Positions 28,936 through 64,000 of a stretch of 64,000 bases of DNA are shown here, one piece after another (position 1 is the first letter of the stretch; every line of letters starts with the position of its first letter). Below the pieces are notes generated by a model. It was given only the letters and a program-made list of their open reading frames with translations, ran no database searches and was not told the origin of the DNA. Origin of the DNA: an uncultured Planctomycetales bacterium (GTDB lineage Bacteria; Omnitrophota; Gorgyraeia; Zapsychrales; Fredricksoniimonadaceae); the NCBI GenBank assembly GCA_964572155.1, contig CAZNDZ010000001.1, forward strand, positions 518,518-582,517, read 5' to 3'. The position numbers and the translations under genes were made by a program.

Positions 28936-28943
28936 GATAAATC

Positions 28944-47160: not shown

Positions 47161-47181
47161 GATGGCTCCTGTCTTGAGCTG

Positions 47182-47210: not shown

Positions 47211-47231
47211 ATTATATTCTAGATAATATAG

Positions 47232-47260
47232 CCCTAAACCACGTTGGGTTTAGGGTTTTT
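47232..47260 (+). terminator. Terminator-like hairpin (9-bp stem CCCTAAACC/GGTTTAGGG, 6-nt loop, then TTTTT) within the lysS leader
   Basis: Perfect inverted repeat followed by a T5 tract. It lies between the consensus promoter and the lysS RBS (AGGAAGG). Confidence 0.5.
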
Positions 47261-47287
47261 AACGGGTAATACTTAGGAAGGTTATGT

Positions 47288-48730
47288 ATGGAAACTAATG
47301 AAACTAAAGAAGTTAGGATAAAAAAATTAGACCGACTGCGTGCTAGTGGGATTGAGAGTTATGGGCATCAGTTTGTGACCACCCATGGGATTGGGGATAT
47401 ATTAAAGGATTTTAAAGAGGGTTTGCAAGTTGTGGTGGCTGGGCGTTTGATGGCGGATCGTGATCAGGGTAAGGTGCATTTTATGGATCTTATGGATCAA
47501 AGTGGGCGCATGCAGTTGTTTGCGAAACTCGATAATATGGGTGAAGCAGCTTTCAAGTTAATTGATGCATTGGATATTGGTGATATTTTAGGGATTGAAG
47601 GCGAAACATTTACAACCAAAACAGGTCAGCCATGTATTCGCATTAATAAATACCATGTGTTGGCTAAGTCCTTGCAAACATTGCCAGAAAAATGGCATGG
47701 CCTTAAAGACGTGGACATTCGTTACCGCCAACGTTATGTGGATATGATTGCTAATCCCGATGTTCGAGAAGTCTTTATTAAACGCAGCAAAATCATTTCA
47801 TTTATCCGTAAGTTTTTGGATTCACGTGGATTCTTAGAAGTTGAAACACCCATGCTTCAGCCGTTGGCGGGTGGTGCGCGTGGTAAACCTTTTGCCTCAA
47901 AGCATAATGCGCTAGATATGAATGTGTTTTTGCGCATTGCGCCAGAACTTTATTTGAAACGTTTACTCGTCGGTGGTTTGGAGAAGGTGTATGAGATGAA
48001 CCGTAATTTTAGAAATGAAGGTATCTCAACGCGCCATAATCCTGAGTTTACCATGCTCGAAGTCTACCAAGCTTACGGCAACTTTGAAGACATGATGAAA
48101 TTAACCGAAGATGTTGTTTCAGAAGCGGTTAAATCTGTGCATGGAAGCTATAAGATCACCTATCAAGGCAAAGACATTGATTTTACACCACCTTGGGAAC
48201 GTCGTTCTTTTGCAAAGGTGGTCAAAGAACATTTTGACATTAACCCTGAAGATACAGCGCAAGATATGTTAGAAAAAGTTAAAGCGCGTCGTAAGGGTGT
48301 AAAGGTTGATCGTTTGACAAAGTCAGCGATTATGAATATTGTCGAAGATGCCTTGGATGAAAATCCAACCGCTAATCCTGTTTTCATGTTGGATTATTTT
48401 ACATTCTTGTCGCCATTAGCCAAAGCTTCACCAAGCAATCCTGCCATTGCCGAGCGTTTTGAGTTTTTCATCGCAGGCATGGAAGTGGGCAATGCCTATT
48501 CTGAGTTAAATGATCCTCAAGAACAATTCAAACGTTTAACCGCGGATTTAGAAGATGATGTGGAAACAGGCAATCGCACCATTGACGAGGATTTCGTGAC
48601 AGCCTTGGAATACGGCATGCCACCAGCCGGTGGTTTGGGCATTGGGATTGATCGTTTGGTGATGCTCTTGACCGATTCACCGTCGATCCGTGATGTTATC
48701 TTATTTCCTCTTATGAAACCGGAGCAATAA
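47288..48730 (+). CDS. lysS: Lysyl-tRNA synthetase, class II (LysS)
   Basis: Anticodon-binding OB domain followed by class II motifs ('FRNEGISTRHNPEFTMLEVY' motif 2, 'GGLGIGIDRLVMLL' motif 3). Confidence 0.9.
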   Translation: METNETKEVRIKKLDRLRASGIESYGHQFVTTHGIGDILKDFKEGLQVVVAGRLMADRDQGKVHFMDLMDQSGRMQLFAKLDNMGEAAFKLIDALDIGDILGIEGETFTTKTGQPCIRINKYHVLAKSLQTLPEKWHGLKDVDIRYRQRYVDMIANPDVREVFIKRSKIISFIRKFLDSRGFLEVETPMLQPLAGGARGKPFASKHNALDMNVFLRIAPELYLKRLLVGGLEKVYEMNRNFRNEGISTRHNPEFTMLEVYQAYGNFEDMMKLTEDVVSEAVKSVHGSYKITYQGKDIDFTPPWERRSFAKVVKEHFDINPEDTAQDMLEKVKARRKGVKVDRLTKSAIMNIVEDALDENPTANPVFMLDYFTFLSPLAKASPSNPAIAERFEFFIAGMEVGNAYSELNDPQEQFKRLTADLEDDVETGNRTIDEDFVTALEYGMPPAGGLGIGIDRLVMLLTDSPSIRDVILFPLMKPEQ

Positions 48731-49929
48731 TGAATTTCTCCTTTTGGATGGCTTTGCGCTATTTAAATGCCAAGAAAGATAAGTTTTTAACCGTGATCAA
48801 TTTCATTGCCGTGGCAGGCATCGCCATTGGTGTGGCGGCGCTCATCATCGTCATTGGGGTCATGAGTGGTTTTGATCATGACTTGCGTGAAAAGATCGTT
48901 GGTGCTAATGCCCATGTCTTGGTTGAAAAAGAGACGGGTTTGAAGAATTATACTGATTTGTTTGGCCGCTTGAAAAAAATTGCAGGTGTGACAGGCGCAT
49001 CGCCCTATATTCATGCGAATGTTTTCTTGGAAGTCCCAGGCCGAGCAGAGAATCTGATTTTGCGTGGCGTTAGCCCCGCCACAGAAGCAGGTGTTACCCG
49101 CATTGATCAATATTTGTCTAAGGCTAAGGTTGCTGATTTAAAAGAAGATGAGGTGATCATCGGCAGTCAATTGGCCGCGTTTTATGGTTATAAGCCAGGT
49201 GATGAGTTGGTGGTCATTGCGCCAGCGTCGGGGGTTGCTGGTAAAGATTGGCGGTTTAAATTGAAAGTTGCGCAAGTGTTTAATTCTGGCATGTATGATT
49301 ATGACCGTAATTTAATCTTGGTGCATTTAGATAAAGCTCAAGAAATTGTACATATCAGCAAAGACATGGTGAGCGGCATTGGGTTAAAGTTAAAGAATCC
49401 AGATAATGCCCAAGCAGTCAAGAAAGCCATTTATGAAGCAGAGGGTTTTAGTTTTGTCGTGCGTACGTGGATGGAAAGCAGTGCAACGTTCTTTGCGGCC
49501 TTAGCCCTAGAGAAAGTTGCTATGTTTATCATTTTAACGCTCATTGTCTTGGTTGCATCGTTTAATATTGTAAGCACTTTAATTGTCACGGTAACAAGTA
49601 AGGTTAGGGACATAGGTATCTTAATGGCAATAGGCGCGTCTCGTGGAACAATTCAAATGATTTTTACGATTCAGGGACTGATTATTGGTTTCATGGGGGT
49701 ATTTTGGGGTTTCATTTTAGGTGTCGGTTTAAGCGTATTGCTTAAGAAATATCATTTTATCGAATTACCGCAGGATATTTATTACATTAAGCACATTCCT
49801 GTGTTAATCCAAGCCACTGATGTTGGATACATCGTCGGTGCTGCCATGATGATTGCGTATTTTGCAACCATTTATCCTGCATTTAAAGCCAGCCGTTTAG
49901 AGCCGGTAGAAGCGTTGAGGTACCAATGA
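48730..49929 (+). CDS. Lipoprotein-release ABC permease (LolC/LolE family, FtsX-like)
   Basis: N-terminal TM, large periplasmic domain and three C-terminal TM segments. Followed by a LolD-like ATPase. Confidence 0.8.
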   Translation: MNFSFWMALRYLNAKKDKFLTVINFIAVAGIAIGVAALIIVIGVMSGFDHDLREKIVGANAHVLVEKETGLKNYTDLFGRLKKIAGVTGASPYIHANVFLEVPGRAENLILRGVSPATEAGVTRIDQYLSKAKVADLKEDEVIIGSQLAAFYGYKPGDELVVIAPASGVAGKDWRFKLKVAQVFNSGMYDYDRNLILVHLDKAQEIVHISKDMVSGIGLKLKNPDNAQAVKKAIYEAEGFSFVVRTWMESSATFFAALALEKVAMFIILTLIVLVASFNIVSTLIVTVTSKVRDIGILMAIGASRGTIQMIFTIQGLIIGFMGVFWGFILGVGLSVLLKKYHFIELPQDIYYIKHIPVLIQATDVGYIVGAAMMIAYFATIYPAFKASRLEPVEALRYQ

Positions 49930-50600
49930 TAAAGGCTCAAAATGTTTCCAAAGCATATCGCCAAGCCGGTAATGTGCTGCGCGTATTAAAAGACGTGTCG
50001 ATCGATATTAACAGTGGCGAAATGATGGCGATTGTAGGCCCATCAGGTGCAGGTAAGTCCACATTGTTGCATATCTTAGGTGGTCTTGATAAACCCAACG
50101 AAGGCGTGGTTACCTTTGAGGGCCAAGATATTTACACCATGACGGATGAAAAGCGTTCTGCGTGGCGTAATGTGAAGGTTGGTTTTGTGTTTCAATCGTA
50201 TTATTTGATCCCAGAATTGACGGCGCTCGAGAATGTGATTTTGCCTGTCATGGTTAAAAATAATTCAAGAAAAACAAGCCAGATCGAAGATATGGGAGTA
50301 AAATTATTGGAAAGCGTTGGTTTATCCGCGCGCGTGACCCATCGTCCAAGCCAGCTATCTGGCGGGGAACAGCAACGGGTGGCTATAGCGCGTAGCTTGA
50401 TTAATCAACCTGCGGTCCTGTTTTGTGACGAGCCAACAGGTAATTTAGATTCTGCCTCTGGCCAAAAGGTTATGGATATTTTATTGAGTTTAAATGCGAC
50501 GCACCATCAAAGTGTGGTGATTGTGACGCATGATCAAAAAATAGCATCGCGTGTATCTCGCGTTGTGTACATTAAAGACGGGCAAATAATCAAGGAGTAA
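49926..50600 (+). CDS. lolD: Lipoprotein-release ABC ATPase LolD
   Basis: Walker A 'GPSGAGKST', signature 'LSGGEQQRVAIAR' and Walker B 'LFCDEPTGNLD'. Confidence 0.8.
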   Translation: MIKAQNVSKAYRQAGNVLRVLKDVSIDINSGEMMAIVGPSGAGKSTLLHILGGLDKPNEGVVTFEGQDIYTMTDEKRSAWRNVKVGFVFQSYYLIPELTALENVILPVMVKNNSRKTSQIEDMGVKLLESVGLSARVTHRPSQLSGGEQQRVAIARSLINQPAVLFCDEPTGNLDSASGQKVMDILLSLNATHHQSVVIVTHDQKIASRVSRVVYIKDGQIIKE

Positions 50601-50604
50601 ACCT

Positions 50605-51474
50605 GTGAAGATTTATTTTAATGGAAAATTAGTCGGTAAAAATGACGCCAAGGTGTCTGTGTTTGATCATGGGTTCCTTTATGGCGACGGTGGTTTTGAA
50701 GGCATTCGTGCGTATGACGGTGTTGTGTTTCGTTTAAAAGAACACATCGACCGCTTGTATGAAACACTGCACACGTTGTTAATCAATCCGCAAATGACCA
50801 AGAAGGAAATGATTGATGCGGTGGTGATGACACTCAAAGCCAATAAGATTAAGAACGGATATATCCGTTTGATTGTTAGCCGTGGCGACGGGGATTTAGG
50901 ACTAGATCCACGCAAATGCTTTGGTAAACCAAACGTGATCATCATTGCGGATAATATCACCCTGTACCCTGCGGCGTTGTATGAAAAGGGCATGGAGATC
51001 ATCACGGTTGCGACGACAAAAAATAATGTCAATGCGCTTAATCCACAATTAAAGTCGCTGAATTATTTGAATAATATTTTAGCCAAGATTGAAGCCACAC
51101 ATTGTGGGTATAACGAAGCGATCATGCTCGATCAAAACGGCTATATTGGTGAATGCACGGGTGACAATGTGTTTATCATCAAGAATGGTTTGTTGTCAAC
51201 GCCACATTTAGCAAGGCTCGAGGGGATTACTGCCCAAGCCATCTTGGATTTAGCAGAAGGCATGAAGGTTAAAACGCATAAAGGTTTTATCACACGCCAT
51301 GAATTGTATAACGCGCAAGAATGTTTCTTAACAGGGACAGCGGCGGAGTTAATACCAATTGTTAAGGTTGATGGTCGTACCATTGGCACAGGTAAACCTG
51401 GTGTTTTGACGGCCAAGCTACTCAAAGCATTTCGTGCTTTAGCAAAAAAAGATGGGGTTAAGTATGCAGTGTGA
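50605..51474 (+). CDS. Class IV (fold-type IV) aminotransferase, branched-chain or D-amino-acid aminotransferase
   Basis: 'FDHGFLYGDGGFEGIRAY' and 'ECFLTGTAAELIPIVKVDGRTIG'. GTG start. Confidence 0.75.
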   Translation: MKIYFNGKLVGKNDAKVSVFDHGFLYGDGGFEGIRAYDGVVFRLKEHIDRLYETLHTLLINPQMTKKEMIDAVVMTLKANKIKNGYIRLIVSRGDGDLGLDPRKCFGKPNVIIIADNITLYPAALYEKGMEIITVATTKNNVNALNPQLKSLNYLNNILAKIEATHCGYNEAIMLDQNGYIGECTGDNVFIIKNGLLSTPHLARLEGITAQAILDLAEGMKVKTHKGFITRHELYNAQECFLTGTAAELIPIVKVDGRTIGTGKPGVLTAKLLKAFRALAKKDGVKYAV

Positions 51475-52015
51475 TATTTGCAGCAAAAAGAAAGCTACCG
51501 TGCATTTAACCGAAATTGTCGACGAACAAATGTCGGAGATGCATTTGTGTGAAGAATGCGCACGCAATAAGAGCGCCCAAATGGAACAGCAATTTGGTTT
51601 GGGTGATTTATTAGCAGGTTTGTCAGCCGACGTGGGCAAAGGACCAGTGAAGGCCGATGATAAAACAGCGCTTAAGTGTTCAAGTTGCGGACTTAATTAT
51701 GAAGATTTCCGTAAATTTGGGAGATTGGGTTGTGGTCAATGTTACAGCTCATTTAAGGAACATTTATCGGGGCTGTTGCGCAAAATCCATGGCTCAAATC
51801 GTCATTTAGGTAAGACGCCCTTTGGCATTCAAGCAAACAACGAGAAGGAAGCGCCGGTGGTGTCTGCCAGTTTACCAGCGCCAGAACCTGTGACTTTGCT
51901 TGCTTCTGAAAACATTGATGATTTAAAAAAACAATTGCACGCGGCAATCGTTGCGGAAGATTTCGAGAAGGCAGCAAAATTGCGCGATAAGATACGTCGG
52001 ATGGAGAAGTCATGA
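51464..52015 (+). CDS. mcsA: Protein-arginine kinase activator McsA (zinc-ribbon plus UVR domain)
   Basis: Two CxxC pairs ('CDICSKKK ... CEECAR', 'CSSCGLNY ... CGQCY'). C-terminal UVR motif 'LKKQLHAAIVAEDFEKAAKLRDKIRRME'. Confidence 0.7.
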   Translation: MQCDICSKKKATVHLTEIVDEQMSEMHLCEECARNKSAQMEQQFGLGDLLAGLSADVGKGPVKADDKTALKCSSCGLNYEDFRKFGRLGCGQCYSSFKEHLSGLLRKIHGSNRHLGKTPFGIQANNEKEAPVVSASLPAPEPVTLLASENIDDLKKQLHAAIVAEDFEKAAKLRDKIRRMEKS

Positions 52016-53070
52016 AAATTGAAGAATTATTAAATCATACAGGCGAATGGTTGCGGGGCACAGGTCCTTCGGCGCATATCGTCATGAGCTCACGCATCCG
52101 CTTGGCACGTAATCTAGCTCAAGCGAATTTCACGAATAAAGCAGGCAAGAAGGATCTGGAAGCAGTCTTTACGACCGTCGAGAAAGCAGTCAATAAGATT
52201 GGGTTATTTAAAGGTGCGACATTGTTTCGCATGGGAGATTTAGATCAGGTGGATCGTCAGATGCTTGTTGAGCGTCATTTGATGAGCCATGAGCATGCAT
52301 CAAATCCCGACGGTAAAGGTTTGTTGATTTCGGGTGAAGAAGTCATATCGATCATGGTCAATGAAGAAGATCATCTGCGTATCCAAGTCATGCGTTCGGG
52401 ATTAAATTTGACCGAAGGTTGGGACATGATCAATGCCATGGATGATGCCTTATCAAAGGAATTAGAATTTGCATTTACCCCAGCATGGGGCTATTTAACC
52501 GCTTGTCCGACGAACACAGGCACAGCGATGCGCGGCAGCGTCATGGTGCATTTACCAGCACTTGTTATGACCAAGCAAATCAATAAGGTATTATCAGCCA
52601 TTTCAAAATTGTCGTTTGCCAGCCGTGGTTTTTATGGTGAAGGCACGCAAGCGTCGGGAAATTTTTATCAAATATCTAATCAAGTGGCGTTAGGGCACAG
52701 TGAAGAAGATATCATTCAAAACATTAATGGCTTGATCCGTCAGGTCATTGAGCAAGAAGAGCAAGCGCGACAAGCGTTGTTGGTTCAAAATAAACCCATG
52801 CTCGAAGATAAAATTTGTCGTTCTTGGGGTGTGCTAAAAACAGCACGCATCATTTCGAGTCAGGAAGCCATCGAATTATTCTCGATGGTGCGCTTGGGCG
52901 TCGATATGGGGATTCTAAAAGATGTTGCCCATAAAGCCATCAATGAAATGTTTATCATGATACAACCTGCCCACTTACAAAAAGTGGAAGGAAAAAAACT
53001 CAATGCGTTCGAGCGTGATACCAAGCGCGCTGCTGTTATTCGTCAAAAGTTAGGTCAGTCGCTTATCTAG
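52012..53070 (+). CDS. mcsB: Protein-arginine kinase McsB (ATP:guanido phosphotransferase)
   Basis: 'LTACPTNTGTAMRGSVMVHLPAL' is the phosphagen-kinase active-site loop (CPTN-GTG-R). Confidence 0.85.
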   Translation: MKIEELLNHTGEWLRGTGPSAHIVMSSRIRLARNLAQANFTNKAGKKDLEAVFTTVEKAVNKIGLFKGATLFRMGDLDQVDRQMLVERHLMSHEHASNPDGKGLLISGEEVISIMVNEEDHLRIQVMRSGLNLTEGWDMINAMDDALSKELEFAFTPAWGYLTACPTNTGTAMRGSVMVHLPALVMTKQINKVLSAISKLSFASRGFYGEGTQASGNFYQISNQVALGHSEEDIIQNINGLIRQVIEQEEQARQALLVQNKPMLEDKICRSWGVLKTARIISSQEAIELFSMVRLGVDMGILKDVAHKAINEMFIMIQPAHLQKVEGKKLNAFERDTKRAAVIRQKLGQSLI

Positions 53071-53118
53071 GGTCTGACACGGTATTGTATTTATAATAGT
53101 TTAACCAGGAGGCAGAAA

Positions 53119-55578
53119 ATGTTTAATCGATTCACTGAGCGAGCACGTAAGGTGATTGTATATGCCAAAGAAGAAGCCCGTCGTTTTAATCATGATTATA
53201 TTGGCACTGAACATTTACTGTTAGGTTTGATCCGCGAAGGCGAAGGTGTTGCTGCCGCTGTTTTGCAAAAGTTAGGCTTAGATTTAGAAACCATTCGTTT
53301 GGAAGTTGAAAAGCTAGTGCAGCCAGGCCCACAAACGCAAGTGATGGGCGATATCCCATTTACCCCACGTTCTAAGAAAGCTTTAGAATTGTCAGCGGAA
53401 GAAGCGCGTGCCTTGGGTCATAATTATATTGGCACCGAGCATTTGCTGTTAGGTTTAGTTAAAGAAGGCGAAGGCATGGCCTATCGCGTTTTACTAAACT
53501 TAGGTTTAGATTTAGGAAAGTTGCGTAACGAAGTCATGGAATTATTAGGTTCAGGTATTCCAGGCTATGGCCAACAACAGCAGCAGCAACAACAAGAAGC
53601 ACAAAAGTCTGGTAAAACACCGGCGATAGATGCGTATGGCCGTAATTTAAATAAACTCGCGCGCGACGGAAAATTAGATCCAGTGATTGGCCGTAAAACA
53701 GAAATTGAACGCGTGGTGCAAATCTTATCACGTCGTACAAAAAATAATCCTGTGTTACTTGGTGAAGCGGGTATTGGTAAGACCGCAATCGTCGAAGGTT
53801 TAGCCCAACAAATTGTTTCCGGTGATGTTCCTGAAATTTTGCGTGAAAAAATCATCGTGGTTCTTGATCTTGCCATGATGATTGCAGGTACTAAATACCG
53901 TGGTCAATTTGAAGAACGTATCAAGGCTGTCATGGATGAACTTAAGCGTTCTGGTAAAATCGTGTTATTTATCGACGAGATTCATACACTTGTTGGTGCA
54001 GGTGCTGCTGAAGGTGCAATTGATGCGGCTAATATCTTAAAGCCAGCACTCGCCCGTGGTGAAATCCAATGCATCGGTGCAACAACGCTCGATGAATACC
54101 GCAAGAACATTGAAAAAGATGCGGCATTAGAGCGTCGTTTCCAAACAATCTTGGTTGAACCGCCATCCGTTGATGAAACCATTCAGATCCTCAAAGGTTT
54201 GCGCGATAAATATGAAGCTCATCACCGTGTGAAGTTTTCGGATGAATCGTTAGAAGCTGCGGCAAAATTATCAGATCGATATATTTCCAACCGGTTTTTA
54301 CCAGATAAGGCTGTTGATATCTTAGACGAAGCAGGTGCCCGTGCGCGCTTACAAGCCATGGTCGTGCCGGATAATATCAAAGAGCTCGAGGCAAACATTG
54401 AGAATTTACGCAAAGAAAAAGAATCATTCATTAAGATTCAAGATTTTGAACGTGCTGCAAAGATGCGCGATCAAGAGCGTGATGTGCGTGATGAATTAGA
54501 ACGCAAACGCAGTGAATGGTTGCAAAAGCGCGATGATGTGTCTTTGACCATCACCGATGATGATATTGCTCGCGTTATTTCCCAATGGACAAAAATTCCA
54601 CTCATTCGCTTAGAGCAAAAAGAAAGCGAACGTCTTTTGAAGATGGAAGCCAAGATGAAAGAAAATGTCATTGGCCAAGACGAAGCCGTGTCGGCGATTT
54701 CCCGCGCAGTGCGTCGTTCCCGCGCAGGGATCAAGAATCCTCGTCGACCAATTGGTTCATTTATTTTCTTAGGACCTACCGGCGTTGGTAAGACATTGTT
54801 GGCGCGCATCTTGTCTGAATTCATGTTTGGTGATGAGAATGCCTTGATCCAAATTGATATGTCAGAGTATATGGACAAATTCAATGTATCCCGTTTGATT
54901 GGTGCGCCTCCAGGTTATGTGGGTTATGAAGAAGGTGGGCAATTAACCGAGAAAGTCCGTCGTCGTCCATATTCCGTCATCTTGCTTGATGAAATTGAAA
55001 AAGCACATCCAGATGTGTTTAATTTGCTGTTGCAAGTCTTTGAAGATGGTCAATTAACCGACAGTCTCGGTCGTCGCGTTGATTTTCGTAACACGATCAT
55101 CATCATGACCTCTAATGTGGGTGCTGAGACAGTGCGTAATAGCGGCACGTTGGGATTTGTGGCGCAAAAAGAAGATGGCACATATAACGGCATGCGCGAT
55201 CGCTTGCTTGGTGAAGTCAAGAAAGCATTCAAACCTGAATTCATCAACCGCATCGATGACATCATTGTCTTTAGACCATTGTCGAAGGAACATTTGCAAG
55301 AAATCGTTAAATTAGAAGTGCAAAAAGTTGTAACGCGTTTGAAAGATCGCGGCATCGATATCACCTTAACACCAGAAGCCTTAAACTTCTTAATTGATAA
55401 AGGCTATGATCCATTGTTTGGTGCCAGACCTTTACGTCGGGTGATTCAACGTTACATCGAAGATACGTTGTCCGAAGAAATCATTGCTGGGCGTTTTAAA
55501 GAAGGTACCAAGTTAAACGTTGTGCGCAAGGGTGATGAAACCTTGTCATTTGAACCGATGGAACCTGTAGTAGGTTAA
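53119..55578 (+). CDS. clpC: ATP-dependent Clp protease ATPase subunit ClpC (Clp-N repeats, two AAA+ modules, UVR linker)
   Basis: Duplicated Clp-N ('[10 protein letters not shown]' twice). Walker A motifs 'GEAGIGKT' and 'GPTGVGKT'. UVR motif '[12 protein letters not shown]'. A poly-Q linker lies after the N-domain. Confidence 0.9.
53572..53595 (+). repeat. (CAA/CAG)8 trinucleotide microsatellite encoding Q8 in the ClpC N-domain/D1 linker
   Basis: caacaacagcagcagcaacaacaa read in the clpC frame. Confidence 0.9.
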
Positions 55579-55587
55579 TCGAGGGAC

Positions 55588-56373
55588 ATGTTCACATACG
55601 TTTTTAAAACTGGCCAGTTGGCTTTGGGGTGGGTGCGCTATGTTGGGCAGCTGAGCATTTTATGGGCTCAGGTGTGGGCATGCATGTTCACCCCTCCATT
55701 TAAAGGTGTGCGTTCGCTAACGCAATCCCACCGCATTGGCTTGGGAAGTTTTGTGATTTCTGGTTTGGTGGCTTTTTTTGTTGGCATGATCATCGCGCTC
55801 CAAATGGCCTATCAAATGATGCAGCTCTCCGCTGAGATGTACATCCCCAATATCATCGCTGTTTCCCTAACACGTGAATTAGTGCCTGTTCTAACGGCGC
55901 TCATTGTTGCTGGTCGCGTCGGTGCAGGTATAGCCGCTGAAATAGGTTCTATGACAGTGACGGAACAGGTCGATGCGATGCGTGCCTTTGCTGTTAATCC
56001 TGTACGCTATCTGGTTGTGCCGCGATTCTTAGGTTTAGTTGCCATGTTGCCGATCTTAACCGTGATCTCTGACTTAATTGGGATTTGTGGCGGTTATATC
56101 ATTTGTGTTTTTAAACTACATATTGGCCATGCCATGTTCTGGAAGATGACATTCTTGTCATTGACCCAAAAAGATATTGTCACAGGTTTGATTAAAACAT
56201 TGTTCTTTGGCATGATCATTGCCATCGTCGGTTGTCATCAAGGATTGAATGTAAAAGGCGGAGCAGAAGGTGTGGGCAAAGCAACCACGACAGCGGTTGT
56301 GAGGTCATTTATATTTATTATCATGATGGATTGTTTTATTACCTTTGTTTTTTATTTTCTTTTAAATACTTAA
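55588..56373 (+). CDS. mlaE: Mla phospholipid-transport ABC permease MlaE
   Basis: Polytopic permease with the EQ-x-D-A motif region ('TEQVDAMRAFAVNP'). Confidence 0.8.
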   Translation: MFTYVFKTGQLALGWVRYVGQLSILWAQVWACMFTPPFKGVRSLTQSHRIGLGSFVISGLVAFFVGMIIALQMAYQMMQLSAEMYIPNIIAVSLTRELVPVLTALIVAGRVGAGIAAEIGSMTVTEQVDAMRAFAVNPVRYLVVPRFLGLVAMLPILTVISDLIGICGGYIICVFKLHIGHAMFWKMTFLSLTQKDIVTGLIKTLFFGMIIAIVGCHQGLNVKGGAEGVGKATTTAVVRSFIFIIMMDCFITFVFYFLLNT

Positions 56374-56374
56374 T

Positions 56375-57160
56375 ATGATCGAAATTCATAATTTATATAA
56401 GTCTTTTGGTCCACAGATGATTTTAAACAATTTGAATCTCACGGTGCGTCGAGGTGAGACCAAGGTTGTGATCGGTCGCTCTGGTGTTGGTAAAAGCGTT
56501 TTACTTAAAAGCATTGTGGGTTTGATGCGCCCTGAAAGCGGTTCGATTAAGATCAATGGAGTTGAGGTAACAGATTTGAATGAACGTGAATATAACAAAT
56601 TGCGCATGGAAATCGGCATGGTTTTTCAAGGTGGCGCCCTATTTGATTCCTTATCCGTCGGTGAGAATGTGGCTTTTGTGTTAGATGAGTTTATGAACCT
56701 TGAAGCAAAAACAGTGAAAGAACGAGTGCGCGATGCGTTGGGGATGGTGGGTTTGAAGGACGTGGAGCATTTGATGCCATCTCAACTATCTGGTGGGATG
56801 AAAAAGCGGGTGAGTTTAGCGCGTGTCTTGTGCATGGAGCCCCAAATCATTTTGTATGATGAACCAACCTCCGAGGTTGATCCCATCACGGCGGTTGCGA
56901 TCAATAATTTGATCCGTGAATTGCGCGACAAGTTAAAAGTCACGTCAATTGTTGTGACGCACGATATGAATTCCGCATATCAGATTGCAGATTCAATTGC
57001 CATGTTTTATAAGGGTGCGGTTATTGCCGACGGAACACCAGATGAAATACGTAACAGCAAGAATCCAGTGGTGCACCAGTTTATCAATGGGTTGCACGAA
57101 GGTCCTATTACAGACGATGAACAATTAGTTTTTGGTCATATCAAACAGGAGAGCTTATGA
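56375..57160 (+). CDS. mlaF: Mla ABC ATPase MlaF
   Basis: Walker A 'GRSGVGKS', signature 'LSGGMKKRVSLAR' and Walker B 'ILYDEPTS'. Confidence 0.85.
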   Translation: MIEIHNLYKSFGPQMILNNLNLTVRRGETKVVIGRSGVGKSVLLKSIVGLMRPESGSIKINGVEVTDLNEREYNKLRMEIGMVFQGGALFDSLSVGENVAFVLDEFMNLEAKTVKERVRDALGMVGLKDVEHLMPSQLSGGMKKRVSLARVLCMEPQIILYDEPTSEVDPITAVAINNLIRELRDKLKVTSIVVTHDMNSAYQIADSIAMFYKGAVIADGTPDEIRNSKNPVVHQFINGLHEGPITDDEQLVFGHIKQESL

Positions 57161-57846
57161 CCCGTGAAAGTCATTTGGAGTTAAAGGTCGGGAGTTTTGT
57201 ATTGGCAGGTGTTTTGGTGCTGTCGTTTTTTGTCAGCTCGATCAGTAATTTTTCATTTGTCGATAAGGGATGGCCCATGCAAGCCGTGTTTACGTTTGCC
57301 AATGGGATCAAAGACGCGGCGCCTGTCCGTCTTGCGGGGATTGAGGTTGGCATTGTCAAAGGCATCAAGGTGTATACCGATGAACAAGACAAGCGCATCA
57401 AGGTTCGGATTAATCTTTGGATCAAAGAAGGTATAAATATCCCTGTTGACTCAAAAGTCATTATCAATCAATTAGGGTTGTTGGGTGAAAAGTATGTCGA
57501 GATTTTCCCTGGAGTATCGACGGAATATGTCAAAGTTAACACAGACATTTTGGGAAAAGATCCCGTGCCTGTTGAACGTGTGACCGAACAAGTCAATGAA
57601 TTGGCAGATAAGATTTCTCTGACAATTGACAAGGTTAATAGTGATCTATTGTCCCCAGCCAATCGCGATGCGGTTGCAGGGGCGCTTAAGGGTATTAATG
57701 AGTTGATTGCAAAAGTAAATCGTGGGGAAGGGACTGTTGGTCGTTTATTTAATGATGATTCGATTTATCGCAATTTGGAAGAATTAACAGCAGATTTGAA
57801 ACTTAATCCATGGAAATTATTGTATCGACCAAGGAATATAAAGTAG
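57157..57846 (+). CDS. mlaD: MCE-domain protein MlaD
   Basis: N-terminal TM followed by an MCE domain ('VRLAGIEVGIVKGIKV'). Confidence 0.75.
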   Translation: MTRESHLELKVGSFVLAGVLVLSFFVSSISNFSFVDKGWPMQAVFTFANGIKDAAPVRLAGIEVGIVKGIKVYTDEQDKRIKVRINLWIKEGINIPVDSKVIINQLGLLGEKYVEIFPGVSTEYVKVNTDILGKDPVPVERVTEQVNELADKISLTIDKVNSDLLSPANRDAVAGALKGINELIAKVNRGEGTVGRLFNDDSIYRNLEELTADLKLNPWKLLYRPRNIK

Positions 57847-57849
57847 CAC

Positions 57850-59220
57850 ATGAAAGCAAAAACAATTTTTGTCTGTCAAGAATGTGGTAGTCAGTCTCCT
57901 CGTTGGGTTGGAAAATGTCCGGCCTGTGAGAGTTGGAATACCTATGCCGAGGAGCAAACCGTAGAGCGACCTGCCGCAAAATCAACGCGTGGTCAGATTG
58001 CACAAAATGCGTCGAGTGAAGTGATGCTCTTGGAAAATGTGAGCACGGTTGATCATACGCGTTCGGTCACAGGCATTGTTGAGTTTGATCGTGTCATGGG
58101 CGGGGGCATTGTGCCTGCCAGTGTCACCTTGATTGGCGGCGATCCAGGTATTGGAAAGTCAACCATTGTCATGCAAGCCGGATGTGCCTTGGCTTTGTCA
58201 GGTTTGAAGGTCTTATATGTTAGCGGCGAGGAATCGATACAACAGGCAAAGATTAGGGCCGATCGTGTCTCTAAGGCGGTTAAAGGAAACTTTTTTATCG
58301 TAAGCGCCATTGATGTCGGCGAGATTGCTGTGCGTATTCATGAATTAAAGCCGCAGGTGGTTATCATTGATTCGATTCAGGTGATGAGTTTGGCAGAAAT
58401 CACGTCGAGCCCAGGCAGTGTATCGCAAGTAAGAGAATCAGCGGCGGTGTTGACGCATTTGGCCAAACAAAATGGCTTTGCTTTATTTTTGATTGGGCAT
58501 GTGACCAAAGAGGGCATGCTTGCAGGACCAAGGGTTTTAGAGCACATGGTTGATACAGTTTTATATTTTGAAGGTGAGCGTTACTCAACATATCGCATTT
58601 TACGGGCTACCAAGAATCGTTTTGGTTCAACCAATGAGATTGGCGTTTTTGAAATGACGGCAGGTGGTTTGCAGGAAGTATCAAATCCGTCCGAGATTTT
58701 CTTAGCAGAGCGGCCATTGGATGCGTCAGGTTCTGTGGTTGTACCAATCCTCGAGGGGACACGGCCATTTTTAGTTGAGGTGCAAGGGTTGGTGTCGCGC
58801 AGTGCTTTTGGCATGGTACGTCAGAAAGCTCAAGGGTTTGATGCGAATCGTTTGGCCTTGCTGGTTGCGGTATTAGAAAAACGATTGGGCATGAATTTGG
58901 GTGATAAAGATATCTTCGTCAATGTCGTCGGTGGTATGCGCATAGCTGATCCTGCGGCGGATTTATCGGTGTGTTTAGCAGTTGCATCAGCATTATTAGA
59001 TAAAGCTGTTAGCCCTGATATTGTGGTGTTGGGCGAAGTTGGATTGTCGGCGGAAGTGCGTAGCGTTTCACAAATCATCACACGCATCAATGAAGCAGAA
59101 AAGTTAGGATTCAAGCGTTGCATTGTTCCTAAAAATAATTTAAGCAAAGCAGATATTAAACCAAAGCATATCAAATTGATCCCTGTGACGTCAGTGCGAG
59201 AAGCGTTGGATAAACTGTAA
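57850..59220 (+). CDS. radA: DNA repair protein RadA/Sms
   Basis: N-terminal C4 zinc finger 'CQECGSQSPRWVGKCPAC', Walker A 'GDPGIGKST', 'KNRFG' motif and a Lon-like C-terminal domain. Confidence 0.9.
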   Translation: MKAKTIFVCQECGSQSPRWVGKCPACESWNTYAEEQTVERPAAKSTRGQIAQNASSEVMLLENVSTVDHTRSVTGIVEFDRVMGGGIVPASVTLIGGDPGIGKSTIVMQAGCALALSGLKVLYVSGEESIQQAKIRADRVSKAVKGNFFIVSAIDVGEIAVRIHELKPQVVIIDSIQVMSLAEITSSPGSVSQVRESAAVLTHLAKQNGFALFLIGHVTKEGMLAGPRVLEHMVDTVLYFEGERYSTYRILRATKNRFGSTNEIGVFEMTAGGLQEVSNPSEIFLAERPLDASGSVVVPILEGTRPFLVEVQGLVSRSAFGMVRQKAQGFDANRLALLVAVLEKRLGMNLGDKDIFVNVVGGMRIADPAADLSVCLAVASALLDKAVSPDIVVLGEVGLSAEVRSVSQIITRINEAEKLGFKRCIVPKNNLSKADIKPKHIKLIPVTSVREALDKL

Positions 59221-59284
59221 GGCCTGCCGCTCTCTGCGGCATGCACGGTATCATATTTGTAATAGAATAACCAGGAGCTAATAA

Positions 59285-60280
59285 ATGACATTATCATTCA
59301 TTCGGATTTTCTTTGTGTTGATCAGTGGGGTTGTTGGTTTTCAGGTAGCATCGATTGTTAACGTTGATTCCACCATGGGTTTTGGAGGCGGGATGATTGG
59401 GGCAGGTTTATTGATTGCCATGGAAATGACCTTAAAGCAGGTTTCTGTACGTGGTTTATCGAGCATGGTTTTTGGGCTTGTTTTAGGGATAGGGATGGCA
59501 AAGTTGATTGCGGATATTTTATCCTTATTGCCAATCGACGAAGTGCTAAAACCCATCTTGCGCGTCATCTTAACCTTGATCTTTGCGTATTTAGGTGCGG
59601 TCATGGCCATGCGCGGTAAAGACGAATTTAATTTGATCATTCCTTATGTGCGCTTTAAACGCCAAGATTTAAAAGAAGGGGTTGTGTTGTTAGATACAAG
59701 TGCCATCATCGACGGACGTATTGCGGATATCTTTAAGACGGGATTTTTAGATGGTAGATTGGTTGTGCCCCGTTTTGTTTTACATGAAATGCAAGCGTTG
59801 GCTGATTCTGCCGATGACACCAAGCGTCAACGGGGCCGTCGTGGTTTAGAATTACTTAAAAATATGCAAAAAGATTCTGCCGCGGATATCCGTATTCATG
59901 AAGATGATTTAAACGGCTCAGAACCTGTTGATTTAAAACTTGTCAAGTTGTGCCGTTTGATGGAAGCACGCATTTGCACCACGGATTTTAATTTAAGCCG
60001 CATGGCATCCATTCAAGGCATTGAGATTTTAAATATCCATGATTTAGTCAATGCGGTCAAACCCATGGTGTTTGCAGGGGAAGAATTAGAAGTGCGTCTG
60101 CTTAAAGAAGGTAAAGATCCAACCCAAGCTGTTGGTTACTTAGAAGATGGAACCATGGTTGTTGTAACCGATGCGCGTAAGTTGATTGGTCAAAATGTGA
60201 AGGTTGCCATCACATCGGCGTTACAAACACAGGCAGGGCGCATGATTTTTGCCAAGTTAGCAGGATCTGTTGCCCCATGA
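59285..60280 (+). CDS. PIN/TRAM-domain protein, YacL-like (membrane-anchored)
   Basis: N-terminal TM helices. PIN domain 'VLLDTSAIIDGRI'. C-terminal TRAM-like beta domain. Position after radA matches Firmicute yacL. Confidence 0.65.
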   Translation: MTLSFIRIFFVLISGVVGFQVASIVNVDSTMGFGGGMIGAGLLIAMEMTLKQVSVRGLSSMVFGLVLGIGMAKLIADILSLLPIDEVLKPILRVILTLIFAYLGAVMAMRGKDEFNLIIPYVRFKRQDLKEGVVLLDTSAIIDGRIADIFKTGFLDGRLVVPRFVLHEMQALADSADDTKRQRGRRGLELLKNMQKDSAADIRIHEDDLNGSEPVDLKLVKLCRLMEARICTTDFNLSRMASIQGIEILNIHDLVNAVKPMVFAGEELEVRLLKEGKDPTQAVGYLEDGTMVVVTDARKLIGQNVKVAITSALQTQAGRMIFAKLAGSVAP

Positions 60281-60942
60281 AATGTGCAATGATCATTGTG
60301 GCCGCAGGTAGTGGCACGCGTTTTAAGTCCAAAACCCCTAAACCGTTTGTCCTTTTGCGAAAAAAGCCCCTCATCGTTCATAGCTTGACTGTTTTTGAAC
60401 GCTGCATTAATATTGATAGCATTGTTATCGTCGGTCATGGGGATTATTTAGCCAAATTTAAGGCCATAGCCAAAAGGTTTAAAAAAGTAACCGCTGTTGT
60501 CAAAGGCGGCGCTACCCGTGCTGATTCAGTAAAACAAGGTTTAAAAGCCATTGATCAGACCTGCGATATTGTTTGTGTTCATGATGCCGCAAGGCCTTTG
60601 GTTAATTTGGACATGATGGCGCGTATTTTTGATGCGCTAAAGAAATCACCGGCGGTGATCACAGCTGTACCTGCCAAAGCAACGATCAAGGAAGTGAGCC
60701 TTAAAACCATGAATGTGGTGCGTACCTTGCCACGAGCAACATTGTGGGAAGTGCAAACGCCCCAAGGGTTTTCGCGTGTGATGTTAGAAAAAGCACATGC
60801 GCGGGCGACGCGATTTGAAGCCACCGATGATGCCATGTTGCTTGAGCATTTAGGGGTGAAGGTCAAGGTTGTGATGGGTGATTATCGTAATATCAAAATC
60901 ACCACACCAGAAGATTTATTGATGGCAGATGTCTTAATTTAG
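60277..60942 (+). CDS. ispD: 2-C-methyl-D-erythritol 4-phosphate cytidylyltransferase (IspD)
   Basis: 'AMIIVAAGSGTRF' and 'VCVHDAARPL'. Confidence 0.85.
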   Translation: MKCAMIIVAAGSGTRFKSKTPKPFVLLRKKPLIVHSLTVFERCINIDSIVIVGHGDYLAKFKAIAKRFKKVTAVVKGGATRADSVKQGLKAIDQTCDIVCVHDAARPLVNLDMMARIFDALKKSPAVITAVPAKATIKEVSLKTMNVVRTLPRATLWEVQTPQGFSRVMLEKAHARATRFEATDDAMLLEHLGVKVKVVMGDYRNIKITTPEDLLMADVLI

Positions 60943-60954
60943 GAGATGTAACTT

Positions 60955-61434
60955 ATGCAGTATCGCAGCGGGATTGGTTATGATGTGCATCGATTAGTGA
61001 CGGGCCGCAAGCTCATGTTGGGTGGCATTGAAGTGCCTCATACGCATGGCCTTGAGGGGCATTCCGATGCGGATGTTGTGTTGCATGCGATCTGCGATGC
61101 GCTTTTAGGAGCCGCAGCCTTGGGCGACATTGGGGAGCATTATCCTAATACAGATCCTAAATATAAAAATATTTCATCATCGCTGTTGCTTAAGACAACA
61201 AATCAAAAAGTCAATGATTTAGGCTATAAGGTGTCTAATGTTGACGTGATGATCTTGGCGCAAGAGCCAAAATTACAAGAATATAAAGCGAAGATGCGTT
61301 TTCATATTGCTTTTGAATTAGCGGTTGATGAGACTCAGGTGAATATCAAAGCAACAACGAATGAAGGTTTAGGTTTTATTGGAGCTAAAGAAGGAATTGC
61401 CGCCTATGCGGTGGCAACGATCATTAAGGGGTAG
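60955..61434 (+). CDS. ispF: 2-C-methyl-D-erythritol 2,4-cyclodiphosphate synthase (IspF)
   Basis: 'IGYDVHRL' and '[17 protein letters not shown]'. Confidence 0.85.
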
Positions 61435-61438
61435 AAGC

Positions 61439-62086
61439 ATGTTTGATGCAATCAAGACAATTAAAGAACGCGATCCAGCCGCTAAGAGCATTCTGGAAGT
61501 GGTGTTGTTGTATCCAGGGTTTCACGCGCAAATCGTGTATCGCATTTCCAATAAATTATGGCAATGGAAAATTCCCATTGTTCCTCGCTGGTTGTCACAA
61601 TTGGGTCGTTTTTGGACGGGCATTGAGATTCACCCAGGAGCAACGATTGGTAAGAATTTATTCATCGACCATGGCATGGGCGTTGTCATCGGCGAGACAG
61701 CCATCATCGGTGACAATGTGCTGTTGTATCAAGGTGTGACCTTAGGCGGAACAGGTAAAGAATGCGGCAAACGCCACCCGACGGTGGGTAACAATGTGGT
61801 CATCGGGGCGGGTGCTAAGGTGCTTGGTAACATTACAGTAGGGGACAATTCTTACGTAGGTGCAAACGCCGTGGTCATTAAAAATGTGCCTGCCAATGCG
61901 ACGGTGGTTGGAATTCCAGCCCGCATCACCAAGCAAGAAGGCCGTAAGATTGACATGGAATTAGATCACGCGCATGTCAGCGACCCTGTTATGGACAATA
62001 TGAGCAAATTGCTTGAACGCATCAAGGCCATCGAACTTAAAAGCGGTGTTATCAATAAGAGCAACGACGACGATTTTGTCATATAA
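61439..62086 (+). CDS. cysE: Serine O-acetyltransferase (CysE)
   Basis: SATase N-terminal helices plus hexapeptide repeats ('[31 protein letters not shown]'). Start set at ATG 61439 rather than the overlapping track start. Confidence 0.8.
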
Positions 62087-62090
62087 CGTA

Positions 62091-62112
62091 GAGACGCGAT
62101 TCATCGCGTCTC
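62091..62112 (+). promoter_or_regulatory. Intergenic hairpin (8-bp stem GAGACGCG/CGCGTCTC, 6-nt loop) between cysE and cysS
   Basis: Perfect inverted repeat read from the sequence. It ends 3 nt before ATG 62116 and 18 nt before the alternative start ATG 62131. Confidence 0.35.
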
Positions 62113-62115
62113 CTA

Positions 62116-63537
62116 ATGAAAGATGTTTTAATGTCGATCAAGATTTATAATTCCTTGTCTCAGAAAAAAGAAGAGTTTGTACCGATCAATGGCAACACCG
62201 TCAACATGTACACCTGCGGGGTTACTGTCTATGATCAATGTCACATTGGTCATGCCCGCAGCCTTTACGTCTTTGATGTGATCCGTCGCTATTTAAAATT
62301 CCGCGGCTATGATGTGCATTTTGTGCGCAATATCACCGACGTTGATGACAAAATCATCAATAAAGCCATTGAAACAAAACGTGAATCCAAAGATGTCAGC
62401 GAAGAGCAAATTAAACTCTATTATGATGATATGAAAAGCCTAGGCGTTACCCCAGGCGATGTAGAACCCAAGGCGACCGACAATATCCCTGAAATGATTG
62501 CGCATATTCAAGGCTTGATAGCTAAGAAACATGCGTATCCGTCAACTGATGGGGATGTGTATTTTGATGTGCGTTCTTTTCCAACCTACGGCCAGTTGTC
62601 TGGTCAGAGCATTGATCAAATGCTCGAGGGTGTACGCATTGAAAAAGATTCTAAGAAAAAAGATCCTCTCGATTTTGCGTTATGGAAATCAGCCAAGCCA
62701 GGCGAGCCATATTGGGACAGCCCATGGGGCAAAGGTCGTCCGGGCTGGCATATTGAATGTTCCTGCATGAGCATGAAACATTTGCATACACAAACACTCG
62801 ACATTCATGCGGGAGGCCGTGATTTAATTTTCCCTCATCATGAGAATGAAGTGGCTCAGTCTGAAGCGCTCACGGGTAAGATATTTGCAAAATATTGGAT
62901 TCATCATGGATTGCTCACCATCAACAGTCAAAAGATGTCAAAATCCTTAGGCAATTTTATCACCATCAAAGATGCGTTGGCAAAATACAGCGTCGATGAG
63001 GTTAAGCTATTTTTCTTATTCTCGCATTATCGCAGCAGCATCGATTTTAGCGAAGCCAAAATGGTTGAAGCCAATAAAGCTTTAGCCAAGTTTGATGTGC
63101 TGTTTTACCGTGCAGCCCAAATCTTAGATGGCAAGCAAGTCGAGCCTGTGCAAGCAGGATTTATTTCAAAATATAAGCATGAATTTATCGAGGCGATGGA
63201 CGATGATTTTAATACACCAAAGGCTTTGGCAGCGTTGTTCTGTTTGATCAATGATACCAATACTTATATTGATCAAAATAGTACCGATCCCAATTACTTG
63301 GGTGTGATTTACCATGCGGTTGATATCCTCGAGAATTTTGGCCGTAACATTTTAGGTTTATTTGCTAACGAAAAAGAATTGGTGTTAACCCCAGATTTAC
63401 AAGTTTTACTCGACGAACGCGTTAGTGCACGGCAATTGAAGAATTTCAAACGTTCCGATGAATTGCGTGACCTATTAAAGACCAAGGGTGTTTTGGTGGA
63501 AGATTCCAAGAGTGGTCAAACCTGGAGATGGATTTGA
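62116..63537 (+). CDS. cysS: Cysteinyl-tRNA synthetase (CysS)
   Basis: Class I 'CGVTVYDQCHIGHARS' (HIGH) and 'KMSKS'. The start could be ATG 62131 ('MSIKIYNSL') by alignment with the usual CysS N-terminus. Confidence 0.88.
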   Translation: MKDVLMSIKIYNSLSQKKEEFVPINGNTVNMYTCGVTVYDQCHIGHARSLYVFDVIRRYLKFRGYDVHFVRNITDVDDKIINKAIETKRESKDVSEEQIKLYYDDMKSLGVTPGDVEPKATDNIPEMIAHIQGLIAKKHAYPSTDGDVYFDVRSFPTYGQLSGQSIDQMLEGVRIEKDSKKKDPLDFALWKSAKPGEPYWDSPWGKGRPGWHIECSCMSMKHLHTQTLDIHAGGRDLIFPHHENEVAQSEALTGKIFAKYWIHHGLLTINSQKMSKSLGNFITIKDALAKYSVDEVKLFFLFSHYRSSIDFSEAKMVEANKALAKFDVLFYRAAQILDGKQVEPVQAGFISKYKHEFIEAMDDDFNTPKALAALFCLINDTNTYIDQNSTDPNYLGVIYHAVDILENFGRNILGLFANEKELVLTPDLQVLLDERVSARQLKNFKRSDELRDLLKTKGVLVEDSKSGQTWRWI

Positions 63538-64000
63538 TGAGAGGCAAGTTTATCACCTTAGAAGGTGCGGAAGGTGCGGGTAAAAGTACGCAGTCGGCGT
63601 TGATCATGGATTATTTTAAGAAGCGCAAAATTCCAGCTGTTTTGTTGCGTGAACCTGGTGGCGTTAAGATTAGCGAAAAGATCCGCGCTTTGTTGCTCGA
63701 CGTCAATAATGCCAAAATGTCCGATGAATGTGAAACCTTGTTGTATATGGCCGCACGGGCACAGTTGGTCAAAGAAGTGTTGATGCCAACGTTGAAAAAG
63801 GGAACACATGTCATTTGTGATCGTTTCTTAGATTCGACCGTAGCATATCAAGGTGCTGGCAATGGCGTTGATACAAAGACCATTGAGAACATTGGATTGT
63901 TTGCAACAGAAGGGCTAAAGCCAGATTTGACCTTGCTTTTTGATATTGATGTGAGCAAAGGTTTGTCACGCACCAATGCACAAAAAGATCGGATTGAACA
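63537..64000 (+). CDS. tmk: Thymidylate kinase (Tmk), 3' end beyond the window
   Basis: 'FITLEGAEGAGKSTQ' P-loop and 'DRF ... DS' lid region. The start overlaps the cysS stop (TGATGA). Confidence 0.8.
   Translation, partial: MRGKFITLEGAEGAGKSTQSALIMDYFKKRKIPAVLLREPGGVKISEKIRALLLDVNNAKMSDECETLLYMAARAQLVKEVLMPTLKKGTHVICDRFLDSTVAYQGAGNGVDTKTIENIGLFATEGLKPDLTLLFDIDVSKGLSRTNAQKDRIE

Follow-up and report, generated by a model that had tools for sequence, protein, structure and literature searches.

A Bacillus-like housekeeping gene array carrying mcsA, mcsB and clpC is conserved across the diderm phylum Omnitrophota

The McsAB-ClpC system of arginine-phosphate tagging is commonly described as a feature of Gram-positive bacteria, linked to the heat-shock repressor CtsR. 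Here we describe an array of same-strand housekeeping genes that includes mcsA, mcsB and clpC and lies in a 64,000-nt stretch of DNA, hereafter the window (contig CAZNDZ010000001.1, positions 518,518-582,517; assembly GCA_964572155.1), from a diderm member of the Omnitrophota, a phylum placed by NCBI in the Planctomycetes-Verrucomicrobia-Chlamydiae (PVC) group. Gene identities were assigned from a map of open reading frames (ORFs) and from Pfam and NCBIfam profile scans of the window proteins. A previous reading of the same DNA, made without database searches (the sequence-only reading), had named thirteen genes, and the ORF map and profile scans recovered all of them where it had placed them, in the same order and on the plus strand. 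Furthermore, lysS, absent from its list, belongs to the collinear array, with the Lol genes lying between lysS and the aminotransferase gene. The array comprises the following genes.

47288-48730, plus strand: lysS, heading the array; class II lysine-tRNA ligase (NF001756, 617.6 bits, cutoff 468; TIGR00499, 574 bits)
48730-49929, plus strand: LolC/E-like lipoprotein-release permease with MacB_PCD and FtsX domains (best match TIGR02212 lolCE, 336.6 bits, under the cutoff of 362)
49926-50600, plus strand: LolD-like ABC ATPase (best match TIGR02211, 271.8 bits, under the cutoff of 307.8)
50605-51474, plus strand: ilvE, class IV (branched-chain type) aminotransferase (Aminotran_4; NF006185, 421.5 bits, cutoff 363)
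51464-52015, plus strand: mcsA, protein arginine kinase activator (alternative ATG at 51452; aligned to B. subtilis McsA, 8wtb_B)
52012-53070, plus strand: mcsB, protein arginine kinase (NF002194, 449.3 bits, cutoff 385)
53119-55578, plus strand: clpC, AAA+ unfoldase (1058 bits against B. subtilis ClpC)
55588-56373, plus strand: mlaE (TIGR00056, 236.3 bits, cutoff 212.2; PF02405, 258 bits)
56375-57160, plus strand: mlaF-like ATPase (best match NF008809, 202.5 bits, under the cutoff of 441)
57157-57846, plus strand: mlaD, MCE protein (best match TIGR04430, 87.9 bits, under the cutoff of 135)
57850-59220, plus strand: radA (sms) (TIGR00416, 579 bits, cutoff 403)
59285-60280, plus strand: YacL-like membrane protein (PIN domain at residues 134-241, TRAM at 265-312)
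60277-60942, plus strand: ispD (TIGR00453, 233 bits)
60955-61434, plus strand: ispF (TIGR00151, 206 bits)
61439-62086, plus strand: cysE, serine O-acetyltransferase (TIGR01172, 246 bits)
62116-63537, plus strand: cysS, cysteine-tRNA ligase, the final array gene inside the window (TIGR00435, 549 bits)

The true start of cysE is probably the ATG at 61439 and not the TTG at 61379, judging from the TIGR01172 alignment, which opens at residue 24 of the long ORF, and from the methionine at codon 21. The N-terminal ~110 residues of the YacL-like protein, about a third of its length, are strongly hydrophobic as read by eye. The GC content is uniform over the block.

The order and orientation of lysS, mcsA, mcsB, clpC, radA, yacL, ispD, ispF, cysE and cysS are shared with B. 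subtilis, for which the reference order from lysS to cysS, apart from the operon itself, is that of the strain 168 genome. The window differs from B. subtilis (operon composition from PMC8957991) in having neither ctsR, a CtsR box, disA, gltX nor a T-box, and in carrying lolCD and ilvE between lysS and mcsA as well as mlaEFD between clpC and radA. For disA and gltX there is no room in the gaps: radA and yacL are 64 nt apart, and ispF and cysE no more than 4 nt. Thus, the description of this locus in the sequence-only reading, as the Bacillus order with ctsR, disA and gltX left out, holds in the ORF listing and the profile scans. For ten clustered genes, the odds of the given order and orientation arising by chance are about 2/(10! 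x 2^10), or ~5e-10; because of these odds, and because the same order recurs in 80 independently assembled species-level genomes, chance is excluded.

These 80 genomes derive from a scan for McsB across one genome per GTDB species, in which the best 80 of 169 confirmed loci were fetched; the order of the array in them was mapped by tblastn with sixteen window proteins. All 80 fetched loci (68-96% McsB identity) come from metagenome-assembled genomes (MAGs) of Candidatus Omnitrophota, part of them deposited under the placeholder name 'uncultured Planctomycetales', and they are independent assemblies that include contigs of 0.3 to 3.4 Mb. Judging from these nearest McsB loci, the genome under study belongs to the Omnitrophota and not to a known clade of diderm Firmicutes, a placement that the sequence-only reading had left as a possibility. 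The order lysS-lolC-lolD-ilvE-mcsA-mcsB-clpC-[slot]-radA-yacL-ispD-ispF-cysE-cysS was found in nearly all fetched loci, to the limits of their contigs: lysS lies 5' of lolC in all 60 Omnitrophota loci having both genes, and ilvE lies immediately 5' of mcsA in 77 of the 77 loci where both are present. Most of the array is retained even in a divergent lineage with an McsB only 49% identical to that of the window (locus L087), where the order is lysS-lolC-lolD-aminotransferase-(173 aa)-mcsB-clpC-(641 aa)-mlaE-mlaF-mlaD-PIN/TRAM-ispDF-cysS. The array is thus a genuine example of deep gene-order conservation that spans the phylum, and not a new kind of system. McsB (mean identity 71-85%) and ClpC (80-89%) are its two most conserved proteins, above LysS, RadA and CysS; this constraint, stronger than that on the essential neighbors, suggests purifying selection on a working system. 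The divergent locus also shows some peculiarities of its own, in that the array lacks radA and cysE and has a fusion of ispD with ispF (19293-20495).

The junction between clpC and radA is the variable part of the array. In 46 loci, this slot was found in four states.

15 of 46 loci (the clade of the window): mlaEFD alone
11 of 46 loci: an exported protein of ~325 amino acids (aa) followed by mlaEFD
17 of 46 loci: the ~325-aa exported protein alone
3 of 46 loci: empty, with radA directly after clpC

In a neighbor-joining tree of McsB and ClpC rooted on Gemmataceae, the loci with mlaEFD alone, the window among them, group in a single derived clade, and mlaEFD is therefore a long-standing occupant of the slot rather than a recent insertion. 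The position of mlaEFD between clpC and radA, which the sequence-only reading had described as an interruption of the Bacillus order, is confirmed; as a recent insertion it does not stand, being one of four old slot states and present in the divergent L087 as well. The ~325-aa protein carries a signal peptide and a C-terminal Phe, and the Pfam scan of its representatives from the relatives assigned it to no family. It lies directly 3' of clpC in most Omnitrophota outside the clade of the window (for example, L036 11321-12288 and L060 13474-14451, with about 35 further loci in which it lies between clpC and mlaE or radA) and has no homolog in the window, so that the clade of the window appears to have lost it. 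The protein may work with the Mla-like transporter in the envelope. In L087, the clpC slot holds, ahead of mlaEFD, a 641-aa protein without a Pfam match (13615-15540).

As in the MlaFEDB complex of E. coli, the MlaE permease, an ABC ATPase and an MCE-domain MlaD-like protein are encoded in one unit. However, the order in the window is E-F-D, MlaF and MlaD score below the NCBIfam cutoffs, and MlaA, MlaB and MlaC were found neither adjacent to mlaEFD nor among the scanned ORFs of the window, although other parts of the genome may encode them. The MlaD of a close relative gives a weak 'Helical_needle' match, so that the assembly might represent a bridging MCE system instead of a classic Mla one.

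The three proteins of the putative degradation module share their functional residues with those of B. subtilis. McsB (352 aa) aligns over its full length to B. subtilis McsB (310 bits, 43% identity) and end to end with McsB structures; its sole Pfam domain is PF00217 (residues 54-251). In B. subtilis McsB, the NEEDH motif and the catalytic C167 have been described (PMC11046695), and R337/D338 form the phospho-arginine receptor (PMC8370763). The window protein keeps the NEEDH motif (N117-E-E-D-H121) in alignment with the B. subtilis protein, has C165, within CPTN, at the position of C167, and has E334-R335-D336 aligned to the B. subtilis ERD. Thus, the loss of catalytic residues that the sequence-only reading had considered as a possible objection is not seen on alignment. 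McsA, numbered from the 51452 start, has two zinc sites, Z1 with C7, C10, C33 and C36 and Z2 with C76, C79, C94 and C97 (C81/C84/C99/C102 in B. subtilis Z2), followed by a C-terminal UVR motif (residues 153-186); its L3 loop, HLGKTP, aligns with the B. subtilis HAGKIP (HxGKxP). ClpC consists of two Clp_N repeats followed by AAA, AAA_lid_9, UVR (M-domain), AAA_2 and ClpB_D2-small domains, and scores 1058 bits against ClpC compared with ~760 against ClpB. In each of the two Clp_N repeats there is a GTEH motif (with E31 and E107, respectively) that aligns with the phospho-arginine pockets of the B. subtilis protein, which are formed around E32 and E106 (PMC12583610), and L678-G-F680 aligns with the ClpP-docking VGF of B. 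subtilis.

The regulatory features of the array, in turn, are not those of the CtsR regulon. No ORF with a CtsR domain was found in the window, and the genes upstream of mcsA are ilvE, lolD, lolC and lysS. A search for the CtsR operator (tandem heptad A/GGTCAAA) gave 17 loose matches versus ~10 expected, all with at least 2 mismatches and none in any promoter-proximal gap of the array, and no CIRCE element was found in the window. These domain and operator searches bear out the sequence-only reading, in which an aminotransferase gene occupied the place of ctsR before mcsA and no CtsR box was seen. An Rfam scan of the window for a T-box or other leader RNA returned only tRNA-Gln at 25916-25986. 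The genes themselves are tightly packed: the first 11 nt of mcsA are shared with the end of the aminotransferase gene, mcsB overlaps clpC in most relatives, and the median gaps over the loci are 2 nt for ilvE-mcsA, 10 nt for mcsA-mcsB and -5 nt for mcsB-clpC. The following intergenic elements were found.

47182-47210, plus strand: candidate promoter of the array, matching the sigma-70 consensus TTGACA-17-TATAAT at 12/12 positions, upstream of lysS
53078-53111, plus strand: 34-nt intergenic repeat, copy 1 (CACGGTATnnTATTTnTAATAGnnTAACCAGGAG), just 5' of clpC
59244-59277, plus strand: 34-nt intergenic repeat, copy 2, just 5' of the yacL-like gene

The candidate promoter is the only perfect sigma-70 site in 46400-64000. 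Given the lack of CtsR elements and the overlaps of mcsA with the aminotransferase gene and of mcsB with clpC, the module is most likely transcribed from a promoter ahead of lysS. Between the candidate promoter and a giant ORF upstream lie two overlapping ORFs (46642-47160), a small ribbon-helix-helix-like one and one for a 95-aa ParE-like toxin (PF05016, E = 4e-4), likely a toxin-antitoxin pair. The two copies of the 34-nt repeat are identical at 29 of 34 bases (2 matches in the window versus 0 expected) and contain a TATAAT/TGTAAT stretch without a -35 element; apart from a partial copy in L001, the repeat was not seen in the other fetched Omnitrophota loci. A role of the repeat as a substitute for the CtsR box was considered and rejected, as most relatives have no mcsB-clpC gap and the motif is missing elsewhere save for that partial copy.

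Taken together, we consider it likely that the Omnitrophota possess a phylum-wide, same-strand housekeeping array that includes an apparently complete phospho-arginine degradation module, free of CtsR and probably constitutive. From the gene identities, the conserved residues, the phylum-wide synteny, the strong sequence conservation of McsB and ClpC and the lack of CtsR elements in this DNA, all of which were observed, we infer kinase activity, partnership with ClpP, co-transcription and constitutive expression. McsA, through its two zinc sites, would bind and activate McsB, which would phosphorylate arginines of proteins that are misfolded or targeted in some other way; the tagged proteins would be captured by the ClpC N-terminal domain through its two phospho-arginine pockets, and ClpC would unfold them and feed them to ClpP via the LGF loop. 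The module would be co-expressed with its neighbors, largely constitutively, by read-through from the lysS promoter, and because there is no CtsR, it would serve general protein quality control rather than act as a heat-shock switch. The Lol genes at the lysS-mcsA junction and the Mla genes or the exported protein at the clpC-radA junction would be old, lineage-variable occupants of the Bacillus-like order.

Several observations weigh against this interpretation. In the 64-kb window, the Pfam scan, which covered plus-strand ORFs and two minus-strand ORFs of 120 aa or more, gave no ClpP, nor were genes for a YwlE-type arginine phosphatase or CtsR found within the same 64 kb. McsA scores 137.9 bits on NF053706, its only family match, under the equivalog cutoff of 210, and is divergent in sequence from the Bacillus-type model; McsB scores 407.9 bits on the Bacillus-centered NF053707, under the cutoff of 500. 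The octamer-latch arginines R190 and R194, a regulatory feature of B. subtilis McsB (PMC8370763), are replaced by lysines (K188 and K192) in the window protein, and self-regulation of McsB may therefore differ, although these arginines are specific to B. subtilis and do not define the McsB family. The promoter at 47182-47210 is a consensus match only, and ~20 nt past it, between the promoter and lysS (47182-47260), there is a 9-bp GC-rich hairpin with a T-run that could be a leader attenuator, a 5' stabilizer or the terminator of the upstream toxin gene.

Two rival explanations were also weighed. The catalytic domain of McsB belongs to the ATP:guanido phosphotransferase family (PF00217), and the protein could in principle be a small-molecule phosphagen kinase acting on free arginine, with an incidental linkage to clpC. 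We regard this as very improbable, since the protein lacks the specificity domain found at the N terminus of arginine and creatine kinases, retains the phospho-arginine receptor ERD and scores only ~90 bits against single-domain arginine kinases, far from its score against McsB. Moreover, close homologs carry McsB_C (PF27454), present in the precomputed annotation of a 97%-identical protein, and mcsB is translationally coupled to mcsA and clpC in most relatives. Likewise, the first impression of a Firmicute-like order in metagenome-derived sequence, which is all that speaks for it, might suggest an artifact in which a piece of Firmicute DNA was assembled into, or binned with, the genome of a diderm. 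However, genes for an outer membrane lie on the very contig of the array: BamA is encoded at 32415-34820, together with Skp, LpxD, LpxA, LpxI and a SurA-like protein, and Lol and Mla genes stand between the genes of the array itself. Because these envelope genes are physically linked to the array, the diderm context is not a binning artifact. In addition, the same arrangement occurs in the 80 independent assemblies, and the L001 locus shares 85-95% protein identity with the window from lysS to yacL and 64% for ispD. A chimeric origin is thus already effectively refuted, and we assign it next to no probability. The bamA-skp-lpxD-lpxC/fabZ-lpxA-lpxI cluster of the window includes an LpxC-FabZ fusion of 428 aa (36373-37659).

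To place the array among known systems, we compared it with other loci and with published descriptions. The sequence-only reading held a protein-arginine kinase and activator pair in a lipopolysaccharide-bearing organism to be noteworthy in itself; this claim is not supported by the comparison, because McsAB occurs in Planctomycetota and Dependentiae, the Chlamydia case has been published (PMC10128030) and homologs in Gram-negative bacteria had already been noted (PMC11046695). McsAB in diderms is known and common in the PVC group. In Chlamydia, McsAB is present and ClpC-ClpP2P1 degrades arginine-phosphorylated casein (PMC10128030). Compared by description, C. trachomatis resembles the organism studied here in being a PVC-group diderm with McsA, McsB and ClpC and without a described CtsR-type context, whereas the chlamydial mcsAB is tRNA-flanked and located apart from clpC, unlike the contiguous trio within the housekeeping array of the window (PMC10128030).

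McsB relatives named as such by NCBI are found in Gemmataceae, Pirellulales and other Planctomycetota and in Dependentiae. Three planctomycetotal loci (L081, L082 and L084) have a UVR-motif McsA-like gene immediately 5' of mcsB, and their McsB is 46-48% identical to that of the window; in Gemmataceae (L081), clpC follows immediately 3' of mcsB, and the locus differs in having two tandem UVR (McsA-like) genes before mcsB and hsp20 after clpC (8929-14743). Pirellulales (L082) and another Planctomycetota MAG (L084) have mcsA-mcsB only, and a Dependentiae MAG (L083 6699-8643) has mcsB without mcsA, directly 3' of an HDOD/HD-domain gene. In contrast to the window, the planctomycetotal loci are not surrounded by lysS, radA, yacL, ispDF or cysES, and none of the Planctomycetota and Dependentiae loci examined carries the radA-to-cysS extension. 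A Bacillota MAG (L088) confirms part of the reference order, with ctsR (PF05848)-mcsA-mcsB-clpC-radA-...-carD-PIN/TRAM. In M. tuberculosis, radA-disA and ispD-ispF-cysS lie in the neighborhood of lysS and clpC1. Mycobacteria also have lysS near a ClpC-type unfoldase, as lysS-lsr2-clpC1 (PMC10066036, Extended Data Fig. 1), and differ in having no McsA or McsB and in that the genes do not form one contiguous array in the same order.

The Bacillus-like order is not confined to this array. A second collinear block in the window (25050-29525) reads ispE-tRNA-Gln(TTG)-glmU-prs-L25/Ctc-pth, followed by ssb, L9 and dnaB; the order ispE-glmU-prs-L25-pth is that of the origin-proximal region of B. subtilis. 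In two close relatives, the array continues on the same strand after cysS with tmk, holB, a PSP1 (YaaT-like) gene and metS (L085 11392-19778 and L086 12457-20538), and past metS with an IF-2B-family gene, thiL, tsaE, tsaB and alr; here, too, tmk-holB-PSP1-metS and thiL-tsaE-tsaB match the order in Bacillus. These separate blocks suggest widely retained ancestral clusters and not one Firmicute-derived island. The 'Firmicute-style' label of the sequence-only reading is therefore apt insofar as the Bacillus-like order is real, and too narrow insofar as it was applied to this array when separate blocks match as well.

An exhaustive profile search retrieved 1788 McsB clusters (50% identity) at E <= 1e-30. 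The nearest non-self relatives of the window McsB, 43-51% identical, come from Planctomycetota, divergent Omnitrophota, Bacillota and Dependentiae. In neighbor-joining trees, which are star-like at the deep nodes, McsB of the Omnitrophota forms its own long-stemmed clade outside the Bacillus group. Five of the 50%-identity representatives (P0132, P0170, P0253, P0263 and P0264) are McsB homologs of 500-545 aa with the kinase in the C-terminal 350 residues, probably McsA-McsB fusions.

Two histories could account for the array. It may have been inherited vertically from a very old bacterial ancestor, whose run of housekeeping operons would survive in Omnitrophota and Bacillota and partly in Actinomycetota, with McsAB-ClpC ancestral in the PVC group and not imported, a scenario that is compatible with the functional interpretation above and to which we give an even chance. 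Consistent with vertical descent, the array occurs throughout the Omnitrophota, including the lineage at 49% McsB identity, it is made up of single-copy essential genes (two aminoacyl-tRNA ligases, ispDF and radA), and it shows no GC anomaly; mcsA-mcsB, with or without clpC, occurs in Planctomycetota, further separate blocks match the order of B. subtilis, and the linkage of lysS to clpC1 extends to mycobacteria (PMC10066036). However, a clade uniting the McsB of Omnitrophota and Planctomycetota has only 15-19% neighbor-joining bootstrap, and the absence of the radA-to-cysS extension from the examined Planctomycetota and Dependentiae loci means that vertical descent needs many losses. Alternatively, the block, or at least mcsA-mcsB-clpC, could have been acquired by ancient horizontal transfer from a Bacillota-like donor, with the envelope genes interleaved later. 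For the chlamydial mcsAB operon, acquisition by horizontal transfer has been suggested (PMC10128030), and the window McsB is about equally far (43-48% identity) from Bacillota, Planctomycetota and Dependentiae. We nevertheless regard such a transfer as unlikely: the Omnitrophota clade does not fall inside the Bacillus group, essential single-copy genes would have to be replaced in order, no ctsR accompanied the block, the base composition is uniform and the neighbors diverge in step with McsB over the phylum. Because that clade is long-stemmed and lies outside the Bacillus group, with unsupported deep grouping, any transfer would predate the radiation of the Omnitrophota.

Vertical descent also admits a bolder version, possible in our view and somewhat doubtful, in which the lysS...cysS run predates the split of Terrabacteria and Gracilicutes and has stayed nearly whole in Omnitrophota and Bacillota, McsAB-ClpC is ancestral to the PVC group including Chlamydia, and the junctions were colonized by Lol, Mla and the exported protein. 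If so, the expression of cytoplasmic protein quality control would be coupled to envelope maintenance, and arginine-phosphate tagging would not be a Gram-positive invention spread by transfer.

NCBI annotation already labels the Omnitrophota McsB proteins 'protein arginine kinase'. Our literature search yielded no paper substantively connecting McsB or ClpC with Omnitrophota; ClpC and Omnitrophota occur together in a single paper, a microbiome study on an unrelated subject, and neither Clp nor arginine kinase is mentioned in the main paper on Omnitrophota genomics. The array reveals no new mechanism. Its interest lies in a phylum-wide, apparently intact, CtsR-free and operon-embedded McsAB-ClpC in uncultured diderm nanobacteria, which, together with the Planctomycetota, Dependentiae and Chlamydia cases, points to the pathway as a quality-control device of bacteria in general and provides a context for the origin of the chlamydial system. 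Furthermore, the ten housekeeping genes that Omnitrophota and Bacillus share in collinear order are functionally unrelated, and their run makes a useful marker in studies of ancestral gene order; the array is also useful for tracing the entry of envelope genes into old operons.

Finally, two very large ORFs without a Pfam match lie in the window, one at 40550-46576 (2008 aa) and the other at 19533-22889 (1118 aa). Omnitrophota are reported to have giant genes (bioRxiv 10.1101/2023.11.21.568195).

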